DNA from: Candidatus Bathyarchaeota archaeon
GTDB lineage: Archaea > Thermoproteota > CALKCG01 > B24 > DRYS01
Length of the DNA stretch: 64,000 nucleotides
Direction of reading: 5' to 3'
Assembly (NCBI GenBank): GCA_018396535.1
Contig: JAGTQC010000004.1
Coordinates: forward strand, 64,001 to 128,000
Shown here: piece by piece, positions 59,010-61,361 of the stretch
Layout of the letters: each line of letters opens with the position of its first letter
How positions within the stretch are numbered: position 1 is the first letter of the stretch
Position numbers and translations under genes: made by a program
Notes under the pieces: generated by a model
The model's database searches: none
Seen by the model: only the letters and a program-made list of their open reading frames with translations
What the model was told of the DNA's origin: nothing

Positions 59010-61237
59010 CTATTCTTTCACTATAAAATCTTCAGCCTTCGGAGGTTCTGGTGTTAGACCCTTCCTAGTTCTTATCTCTGTTACTATAGCCTTCTGCATA
59101 GATGCTGGTACCGGAGCCCATCTCGAGAAGCTTAGAGACCAGAATGCTTTACCACTAGTCGTAGACCTCATAACCTCAGCTAGATCGAATGTTTCTGCAG
59201 CAGGTATTTCGCCTATAATCCTAGCTAGATATGCATCCTGGGTTAGACTGACTACTTGTCCACGTTTACCAGTTATTATCCTTATAACGTTACCAACCAT
59301 ATCTAGAGGTGTTTTAACCTCTATACGCATTATAGGCTCTAGTAGTGCCGGGTTTGCTGAAAGCATAGCAGCGTAGATAGCCTGCCTTACAGCTGGTATT
59401 ATCTGTGCAGGTCCTCTATGTGCTGGATCCGAGTGTAATTCTGCATGGTTCAATATCACCTTTACACCTCTCACATACTCTCTACAGAGTGGGCCATCAT
59501 CCATAGCTGATAGGAATCCAGATACTATATAGTCTATAGCTTCATTCAGGTACTGTACACCCTTCGTTCTATCGACTAGTATACATCCATGTTGATCTAT
59601 AGCTAAGACATTTCTAGCATCTTCAGCACTCCACCCTGCATCCCTTAGGATCTTAGTCTTCATCCTCCTATCGAGTTCATCATGCAGCTCTCCACTCATA
59701 ATCTTATCTATAACCTCTGGTTCAAGAGGCTCCGTACTTATGAAGACTCTATTATGCTTATTCGGTGATTTACCCATGAACGGGCCTGCAGATCCTCTAA
59801 TAGTCTCTCTGTAGATTATCGTAGGCTTAGACACTATTATTTCTATACCTGCCTTCTGTATGAGTGTTAACGCTATCTCTATATGGACCTGGCCTAAACC
59901 TGATATCAGGTATTCGCCGCTCTCTTGATCTATATGCGTTACAAGATTCGGATCCTCTATGGATAGCCTTCTAAGGATATCTACTAGCTTAGGTAGATCC
60001 CTACTATACTTTGGCTCTATAGCTACCGTTATCACAGGCTCCGTCACATATCTAACCATCTCGAATGGCACTACATCCTGTATACTCGATATAGTCTCAC
60101 CAGCCCTAGCATCATCTAGACCTAGTAGTGCTGGTATATTGCCTGCAGATAGGCTTCCAACTATCTCCCTTCTAGGTCCCATGTATATGCATACCTGTTG
60201 TACGCGCCCCTTCCTCCTAGCTCCTACCAGGTATACTTCGCTCCCCTCGCTTATCGTTCCAGAAAATAGTCTACCAGTAGCTACTACACCTGCATGTGGA
60301 TCTACAGTTATATTCGATATACACATAACGACTGGGCCATCATCATCGCATGAAAGCATAGCCTTACCTACAGGGCTATCTAGATCTCCCCTCCATATCT
60401 TAGGTATCCTTATCTTCTGTGCATCTATCGGGTTAGGTATATGCCTAATAACCATCTCCAGTATAGCTTCGTGTAGCGGTAGATCCCTAGCTAGCTCCTC
60501 ACTCCTCCCCCTTCTATAAGCTTCCACTATATCCGAGAACTTAACCCCCTTCTTCATAGCTATATCTAACGTTAACCCCCATCTATCTCTAGCAGAACCG
60601 AAGGCAACCTGGTTTAGAGCAGGATTAACCTTCCAGCTTGATCTAAATTCTGGCTCAGCGTATATCTCGATAAGATTATTGAAATCCTTTATTATATTCA
60701 TCAGAGTTTCCTGGATAGCATTCGGTTCTAGCTTAAGCTCGTTTATCAATCTATCGATCTTATTTATGTAGAGTAGTGGTCTAACCCTCTCCTCGAGTGC
60801 TTGTCTAGTAACGGTTTCCGTCTGAGTCATAACACCTTCGACTGCATCTACGACTACTATAGCTCCATCTATAGCTCTCAAGCTCCTCGTAACTTTACCT
60901 GTAAAGTCGATGTGTCCAGGTGTATCTATCAGGTTTATGATATATGGCTTACCTTCAAGCTCGTAGTATAGGCTTATATTAGCTGCTTTAATCGTCATCT
61001 GCCTCTTCTGCTCCTCTTCCATATAGTCTAAAGCTAATGCTTTACCAGCTACGGTAGGCGATAGGAGTCCGGCTGCAGCAAGAAGGCTATCCGTCATCGT
61101 AGTTTTGCCATGATCGACGTGAGCTATTATACCTATATCTTCCGGGGGTGAAGAACCTCCTTTCACCCCTTTCGGATCTGACTCTTATCCTTAACTATAC
61201 CTAATACCTCTGCTACACTCTTATACCTTCCGGGCAT
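59010..61237 (-). CDS. fusA: Elongation factor aEF-2, split by an intron: exon 1 61237-61171, exon 2 61138-59010 (731 aa spliced)
   Basis: GGAGGAG SD then ATG at 61237; exon 1 = MPGRYKSVAEVLGIVKDKSQIR. Exon 2 carries AHVDHGKTT, DTPGH, NKID and the diphthamide loop HRGPAQ. The ORF-track start (61166) lies inside the intron. Confidence 0.95.
61139..61170 (-). other. 32-nt bulge-helix-bulge (archaeal endonuclease-type) mRNA intron in aEF-2
   Basis: Minus strand: TCCG-AA^A-GGGGTGAA-AGGAGGTTC-TTCACCCC-CGGA-AG^A-TATAGG. 4-bp central helix TCCG/CGGA, two 3-nt bulges, 8-bp intron stem. Splicing gives ATC CGA AAT ATA GGT = I-R-N-I-G. Confidence 0.9.
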
Positions 61238-61361
61238 ATTGAGTATCTCCTCCATTCATAGATTCTCTAAGCATTAGAGCATACTCATACTTCTATAAAC
61301 ATTTCTCTGCAGTATTCAGCAGAAAAGTTATAAAGGTTTCCCCGCCTCTGCTTTCATTGCT

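Follow-up and report, generated by a model that had tools for sequence, protein, structure and literature searches.

A short bulge-helix-bulge intron very probably interrupts the elongation factor 2 gene in Bathyarchaeia

The closest described counterpart of the feature reported here is the crenarchaeal cbf5 intron (Watanabe 2002; Yoshinari 2006; Yokobori 2009, PMC2738675), which is excised at a motif of the bulge-helix-bulge (BHB) type by cuts after the second bulge base, i.e., between bases two and three (PMC2738675). Archaeal pre-mRNA splicing was confirmed for cbf5 only and introns in other genes were predicted (Yokobori 2009, PMC2738675). Later, cbf5 was named as the sole additional BHB intron reported, and a case in a 5′ untranslated region (5′-UTR) was added (Schwarz 2020, PMC7714728); a 2025 NAR paper still cites the cbf5 papers alone. 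The feature reported here lies in a 64,000-nt stretch of a Candidatus Bathyarchaeota genome (positions 64001-128000 of contig 9, in the following the window; 1.41-Mb genome, 14 contigs, 93% complete). There, the gene for the archaeal elongation factor 2 (aEF-2) carries an insert of 32 nt. The feature is real and was missed by the public annotation, and it is very probably removed by splicing, as a BHB intron of the type that cbf5 established. The first-pass annotation, made from the letters of the window, knew of no such case in EF-2. This holds within the literature searched, where only cbf5 and the one 5′-UTR case are described; no report of an archaeal EF-2 intron was found there, most subscription journals lying outside its coverage, and within this literature the EF-2 intron is unpublished.

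The introns of cbf5 and EF-2 are alike in that both are short, lie in coding sequence in phase 1 and occupy a highly conserved codon. In both cases the BHB motif is mostly of the relaxed form, the cuts are predicted to follow the second bulge base, a hetero-oligomeric EndA (the tRNA splicing endonuclease) seems to be needed, and gain and loss are patchy. They differ in the host gene, which is here the translocase EF-2, and in the lineage, which is here the Bathyarchaeia. In addition, cDNA and cleavage assays in vitro have confirmed the splicing of cbf5, whereas the EF-2 case is known here from sequence alone. The motif geometry and the enzyme class of EF-2 are also those of the HBh′ tRNA introns of Thermoproteota with an (alpha-beta)2 EndA (PMC3241643, PMC5829648, PMC2724299). 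Unlike in these, the EF-2 substrate is an mRNA, restoration of the reading frame counts instead of tRNA folding, and no tRNA body aids recognition.

An mRNA is processed by the tRNA splicing endonuclease, as predicted for EF-2, in the case of HVO_1309 of Haloferax volcanii (Schwarz 2020, PMC7714728). However, this intron is located in the 5′-UTR and interrupts no frame, and the enzyme is not of the (alpha-beta)2 type. In eukaryotes, HAC1/XBP1 mRNA is cleaved by Ire1 and ligated by tRNA ligase or RtcB. As is proposed for EF-2, a short coding intron at stem-loops is removed without a spliceosome, and joining by a tRNA ligase alters the reading frame; in contrast, the endonuclease is Ire1 and the event is regulated by stress. 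The role of RtcB in HAC1/XBP1-type splicing is mentioned in PMC8718801.

The aEF-2 gene is located on the minus strand of the window. Read directly, it starts with an ATG at 61237-61235, which is preceded at a distance of 9 nt by a Shine-Dalgarno-like GGAGGAG (61247-61253), and runs into an in-frame TGA 24 codons later. This first frame encodes MPGRYKSVAEVLGIVKDKSQIR followed by AAG (K), GGG (G) and the TGA at 61165-61163. The rest of EF-2 lies in a different frame, in an open reading frame (ORF) of 718 amino acids that begins with a GTG (59010-61166). When 32 nt (61170-61139) are deleted, a single ORF of 731 amino acids is obtained, which reads ...SQIRNIGIIAHVDHGKTT, includes ...IRNIGIIAHVDHGKTT and has a canonical G1 context. 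All coordinates given for this gene by the first-pass annotation could be reproduced to the base, including the deletion that restores the frame. Another in-frame ATG is located upstream, at 61255. The start at 61237 is nevertheless supported, because the proteins of relatives begin with MPGRYK or MPRYK.

Exon 1 (61171-61237) consists of 22 codons (MPGRYKSVAEVLGIVKDKSQIR) and the first base of an Asn codon, while exon 2 (59010-61138) comprises the AT of this codon, 708 codons and the stop, and covers all five EF-2 domains (Pfam GTP_EFTU, EF-G_D2, EFG_III, EFG_IV and EFG_C). The putative intron (61139-61170, minus strand) is situated 22 codons into the gene in phase 1, between CGA-A and AT, where an Arg codon meets an Asn codon immediately ahead of the P-loop. 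The predicted spliced junction, in DNA letters, is CAGATCCGAA joined to ATATAGGTAT, and the protein across it reads ...SQIR-NIGIIAHVDHGK. The TGA (61163-61165) stands two codons beyond the 5′ splice site, and a GTG within the intron (61164-61166) is the start used by the automated annotation. A second, intact aEF-2 copy elsewhere had been considered as a caveat; the genome-wide search found one EF-2 only, and the remaining matches were aIF5B-like and EF-1alpha-like GTPases.

The insert and its flanks can be folded into a BHB motif. The central helix H is formed by UCCG (61173-61176), which consists of the last base of an Ile codon and the CG of the Arg codon in exon 1, and by CGGA (61141-61144) on the intron side. 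It is flanked by a 5′ bulge AAA (61170-61172) and a 3′ bulge AGA (61138-61140), with cuts predicted after the second base of each, between 61171 and 61170 and between 61139 and 61138, respectively. On the intron side follows the helix h′, an 8-bp stem of GGGGUGAA (61162-61169) and UUCACCCC (61145-61152), which is supported by folding and by covariation and is closed by a 9-nt loop. The exon helix strand is thus followed by the first bulge, the hairpin of the intron, the helix strand of the intron, the second bulge and the exon. The canonical pre-tRNA motif has the same handedness; in it, the intron pairs through its 3′ end with exon bases 32-35. RNAfold of 61190-61125 (66 nt) yielded a minimum free energy (MFE) of -18.4 kcal/mol and recovered the 8-bp stem, the helix of 4 bp and the 5′ bulge of 3 nt. 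In the sequence itself, all elements lie exactly where the first-pass annotation had placed them.

For a comparison among relatives, 103 EF-2 loci from the genome search and related loci were used, 50 of which are contiguous. The other 53, all from Bathyarchaeia and representing 44 distinct sequences, are interrupted at one and the same site, after the Arg codon plus one base (Arg/Asn, phase 1). The inserts are 25-44 nt long, and in every one of the 53 interrupted loci a helix of 4 bp can be drawn with a 3-nt bulge at either end and cuts after the second bulge base. Since the interrupted frame occurs in a draft metagenome-assembled genome of 14 contigs, a broken gene or an assembly artefact might be considered. 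However, many studies have produced independent assemblies that contain the insert, the gene is the sole EF-2 copy and both exons are under purifying selection, which makes this explanation extremely improbable.

Covariation was analyzed in a MAFFT alignment (A1) of the 44 distinct sequences, anchored on both flanks. Helix H is paired in 44 of 44, and one of its four pairs changes on both sides: C-G is replaced by U-A in eight sequences, in which the synonymous exon change ATC to ATT goes with CGGA to CGAA in the intron. In helix h′, seven of the eight pairs are altered on both sides across the relatives. The proportion of paired cells is 84.5% in the true register, and sliding the 3′ partner lowers it to 50.6% or less. 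The covariation score reaches 0.356, compared to 0.182 for shuffles (0 of 500 attain 0.356) and at most 0.153 for slid registers. Intron presence and compensatory stem changes in relatives, named beforehand as a check of the BHB reading, were therefore both found, the latter in both helices.

The helix also leaves its mark on the coding sequence. The Arg codon at the junction is CGN in all 53 interrupted genes (CGA in 50, CGT in 3), whereas it is AGG or AGA in 40 of the 50 contiguous genes; the RNA helix therefore seems to hold the codon choice of the exon. In 42 of the 44 EF-2 introns a stop codon (TAG, TAA or TGA) stands at intron positions 6-8 of A1, two codons downstream of the 5′ splice site, and its identity switches together with compensating changes on the opposite stem strand. 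Selection may have favoured this early in-frame stop as a safeguard against translation of unspliced mRNA.

The break is followed by a stop codon and by a hairpin that is stable, as is the gap of phage T4 gene 60, which would speak for a ribosomal recoding, either a translational bypass (hop) of this kind or a programmed frameshift. The inserts, however, fall into all three length classes modulo 3, hence no single frameshift fits. For a bypass, the exon 2 frame before ATA-GGT reads CCG-GAA-GAT and offers no landing match for CGA or AAG, the possible take-off codons. A hop would also fail to produce the conserved Asn, which arises only from the joining of A and AU. In addition, it is specific to a BHB that exon bases covary with the 3′ end of the insert while the 3-nt bulges stay fixed, and recoding is considered very improbable.

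Whether the region upstream of the insert is coding was analyzed with the 20 codons before the split codon in the 44 sequences. The entropies at codon positions 1, 2 and 3 are 0.58, 0.38 and 1.26. Synonymous and non-synonymous codon differences amount to 5758:6046 in frame, compared to 1465:10748 and 504:11236 out of frame. Stop codons are absent from the reading frame in all 44 sequences, whereas 41 and 27 sequences contain them in the other two frames. The 22-residue exon 1 is not recognized by Pfam or NCBIfam; its identity is therefore based on the coding constraint and on BLASTP, by which it matches the N-terminus (first 21 residues) of the contiguous EF-2 P0147 with 59% identity (E 1e-07).

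These data bear on the possibility that no splicing takes place and that EF-2 starts inside or after the insert, at the GTG 61166 or at the Met after GKTT, exon 1 being a small ORF or a leader. The protein would then begin with MKGGSSPPEDIG... or MTDSLL. An in-frame GTG does exist within the insert of this genome, and the public calls of EF-2 agree with such starts: the protein is called with 718 amino acids from the intron GTG here (VKGGSSPPEDIG..., P0128), just as the first-pass annotation had suspected when it spoke of a false start that hides the intron, and with 693-695 amino acids in relatives, all of them named EF-2. On the other hand, in 39 of the 44 sequences no in-frame ATG, GTG or TTG is found from the last stop to the P-loop, and the GTG in the intron of this genome appears to be an accident. 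The calls of 693-695 amino acids lack the GTPase G1 motif, exon 1 is constrained as coding sequence and matches the N-termini of contiguous EF-2 proteins residue for residue, and the covariation of H and h′ would be left without an explanation. It is thus hardly credible that EF-2 is made without splicing. Database entries of 693-695 amino acids include P0121, P0135, P0139, P0140 and others. They are devoid of the P-loop because their start follows it, as in P0121, which starts at the Met after GKTT. Gene callers in this way truncate interrupted proteins, which distorts marker-gene alignments, phylogenies and completeness estimates.

A natural counterpart without the intron could also be identified. 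P0147 (730 amino acids) was found in a large protein collection, and the other full-length members of its 90% cluster are all called at 695 amino acids. It is encoded on two Logan contigs of about 15 kb, L124:3001-5193 (SRR28530379) and L125:780-2972 (SRR28530378). As both strands of these contigs carry genes and promoter regions that diverge are present, P0147 is read as an intron-less DNA allele and not as a transcript; the neighbouring genes are the same as in intron-bearing relatives. Its EF-2 shares 97.4% protein and 92.6% DNA identity with that of the intron-bearing locus L008. At the intron site, it has CTTATTCGAA joined directly to ATATAGGTATT (TTCGAA/ATATAGG), which equals the predicted ligated junction, and the CGA codon is kept. 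The allele would thereby fix the splice product independently, the A runs leaving the exact cuts ambiguous by at most 3 bases. It is read as a recent and precise loss of the intron at the DNA level. For cbf5, loss by recombination with a copy of the spliced mRNA was proposed (PMC2738675), and such an event would give an allele like that of P0147. This naturally intron-less EF-2 allele represents a ready experimental control.

Metagenome contigs were also searched for spliced junctions. The exact junction of this genus had no match in them, and a degenerate junction of the soil clade had five, all on DNA contigs of 29-290 kb and none on a transcript. Three of these belong to EF-2 genes of an unrelated intron-less lineage, and two have no EF-2 G1 motif in the stretch examined.

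The distribution of the intron was analyzed on a FastTree phylogeny of 90 distinct EF-2 proteins (single gene, midpoint rooting). The intron-bearing genes form two well-supported groups, one of 13 hot-spring sequences including this genome (support 100) and one of 30 mostly from soil, peat and sediment. Three changes of intron state suffice on the tree, compared to about 30 for shuffled labels. The contiguous gene L045 is nested among the intron-bearing genes. A separate, deeper Bathyarchaeia clade of 27 EF-2 sequences (IHIDHGKTT type) is intron-less. Two Bathyarchaeota EF-2 clades were noted before (Narrowe 2018), and the deeper clade seems to fit this pattern.

The enzymes for the removal of such an intron are encoded in the genome. 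A search with PF01974 revealed two EndA genes, at C2:6210-6773 (alpha) and C1:182214-182783 (beta), both on the plus strand. The alpha subunit (187 amino acids) carries YRYGPGIDHAPYLV...RK with Tyr, His and Lys present and aligns over its full length with the catalytic subunit 3p1z_B of Aeropyrum pernix (E 7e-48). Its KPRG loop ...VGKPRGMDIDSPL is aligned to ...VEKPRGADFEGPL of A. pernix. The beta subunit (189 amino acids) has EAAKYLV in place of the catalytic His and matches the structural units of the M. kandleri and A. pernix enzymes. The Crenarchaea-specific loop has been implicated in relaxed recognition (PMC3241643, PMC2724299), and (alpha-beta)2 and epsilon2 are, according to PMC5829648, the only EndA types reported to cut non-canonical motifs. 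By these features the enzyme of this genome can be assigned to the (alpha-beta)2 type with the Crenarchaea-specific loop, in line with the relaxed-specificity endonuclease that had been anticipated. An RtcB-type 3′-phosphate RNA ligase is present as one full-length copy (C7:165752-167059, E 1.4e-179).

Based on this, the following course can be proposed. In the pre-mRNA, the exon bases UCCG would pair with the last four paired bases of the intron, CGGA, giving a helix of 4 bp with a 3-nt bulge on each flank, and the intron side would be closed by a hairpin of 8 bp. A heteromeric (alpha-beta)2 EndA would cut each bulge behind its second base. The exons would then be joined by RtcB, which would probably also circularise the intron. 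The product CGA-AAU-AUA would encode ...IRNIGIIAHVDHGKTT and the 731-residue EF-2, whereas unspliced mRNA, owing to the in-frame TGA, would give a peptide of 24 residues only. That a 32-nt intron with a relaxed HBh′ motif interrupts aEF-2 and is spliced by EndA and RtcB is regarded as highly likely. The first-pass annotation had arrived at the same EndA/RtcB mechanism, which is now backed at the sequence level by the conserved site, the covariation, the constraint on exon 1, the codon choice, the intron loss and the enzymes.

Several points weigh against this reading. As a single sequence, the insert folds only modestly better than shuffles (z = -1.86; an equally good fold is reached by 7 of 200), so that the fold alone is suggestive and does not reach significance. 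The motif is beyond chance because 44 distinct sequences share the site and the geometry and show covariation. The strict hBHBh′ motif, which is the substrate of homomeric EndA, has a stable outer helix h in addition to the inner h′. Here the exon-side outer helix is poor: it has one covarying pair (A-U in 39, G-C in 4), where an Ile to Val change is tied to the synonymous change AAT to AAC, and this pair is followed by a G-A mismatch in 38 of the 44 sequences. A weak exon-side helix with one clear A-U pair had already been described from the single sequence; the motif is therefore of the relaxed HBh′ type and lies outside the strict class. Furthermore, cleavage of such a relaxed substrate by the EndA of this organism is assumed by analogy with crenarchaeal enzymes. 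Finally, only 22 codons precede the intron, so ribosomes could reach and melt the motif early, and splicing would have to outpace translation.

The weak outer helix, and the fact that cleavage in this lineage is judged from sequence, could also be taken to mean that a real intron is removed by another nuclease or by self-cleavage instead of EndA and RtcB. Against this stand the conserved features, which are exactly those that EndA measures, namely the 4-bp helix, the two 3-nt bulges and the cut sites, as well as the relaxed-specificity EndA type encoded in the genome. With 25-44 nt, the inserts are also far below the size of group I and group II introns, whose catalytic core comprises hundreds of nucleotides. 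Removal by such other means is very improbable. A self-splicing group I or group II intron, considered as a separate candidate, was ruled out by this size; Rfam detected two tRNAs in the window and no further match.

With an intron in the single-copy gene of an essential translocase, protein synthesis itself would depend on the tRNA-splicing enzymes. A regulatory link between tRNA-splicing capacity and translation, however, is speculation.

Further mRNA introns were searched for in the whole genome, as had been proposed along with the EF-2 finding. The blind scan combined the structural pattern (H of 4 bp, 3-nt bulge, hairpin, H, 3-nt bulge) with the merging of two open frames. With loose and medium filters the candidates ran into the hundreds, but control offsets with a shifted frame gave just as many, and the strictest filter returned 12 compared to 7-12 in the controls, i.e., no excess. 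As the controls match the counts, the merging of ORFs has no statistical power and only the continuity of a protein family across the junction can validate a candidate. The most stable candidates were tested in this way with Pfam and NCBIfam, and five more genes were added, although the proposed scan did not stand out by its number of candidates. In each of the five, one family runs on across the junction of an insert like that of EF-2, which also speaks for the intron reading of EF-2.

The SAM synthetase (S-adenosylmethionine synthetase) gene contains a 35-nt insert (C8:172213-172247, L116) in ER-K-GLGHPD, and PF01941 matches from 2 to 23 and then from 25 to 394. In the aIF5A gene, a 35-nt insert (C7:48986-49020, L118) splits the Lys codon of SKPG-K-HGSAK, the hypusine site; IF5A-like_N matches at 4-35 and then at 37-60. 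The cbf5 gene itself has a 34-nt insert (C1:62867-62900, L117), which splits the catalytic Asp G/AT (GGTL-D-P) between DKCLD and TruB_N, the latter matching from position 17. This is the site of the crenarchaeal cbf5 intron described in PMC2738675.

The insert in the aIF5B gene is 24 nt long (C12:5713-5736, L119), lies in phase 0 and has TAA as its last codon; GTP_EFTU matches at 4-29 and then at 70-186. The fifth gene, amrS, encodes an AmmeMemoRadiSam radical-SAM enzyme and carries a 21-nt insert (C11:41481-41501, L115) with TIGR04337 matching at 4-58 and then at 60-330. In SAM synthetase, aIF5A and amrS exactly one profile position is absent, which is the split codon.

Together with EF-2, six genes of this 1.4-Mb genome are interrupted (EF-2, aIF5A, aIF5B, cbf5, SAM synthetase and amrS). 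In every one of them the break falls on, or next to, a codon that is catalytic or among the most conserved. All six introns contain an in-frame stop, in five of them within 2-3 codons of the 5′ splice site. The EF-2 intron, kept across two Bathyarchaeia clades, and the at least five further introns suggest that genes of this large uncultured group are regularly expressed by way of mRNA splicing. More tentatively, and with doubt prevailing, the EF-2 intron might be part of a lineage-wide layer of mRNA splicing in Bathyarchaeia, in which the tRNA-splicing enzymes would have to act on the transcripts of at least six housekeeping genes ahead of translation. If so, EndA/RtcB activity could gate the output of the translation apparatus, with the early stop as a fail-safe; alternatively, the introns could be domesticated relics of homing-type mobile BHB introns that targeted conserved sites.

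Among the other scan candidates, L10/P1 and L31e/aIF6 are adjacent genes and were rejected as false positives, as was L14e with a short downstream ORF. A 40-nt BHB-like hairpin (C7:58549-60925, L120) would join a 17-codon ORF to a gene for a family-B DNA polymerase (PolB). For the 17-codon ORF before PolB no homology evidence was obtained, and this hairpin is probably a chance hit.

Finally, ARAGORN predicted 36 tRNA genes in the whole genome, none of them for Asp, Phe, Trp or Tyr. This is compatible with several tRNA genes being disrupted by non-canonical or multiple introns beyond the model of the program.

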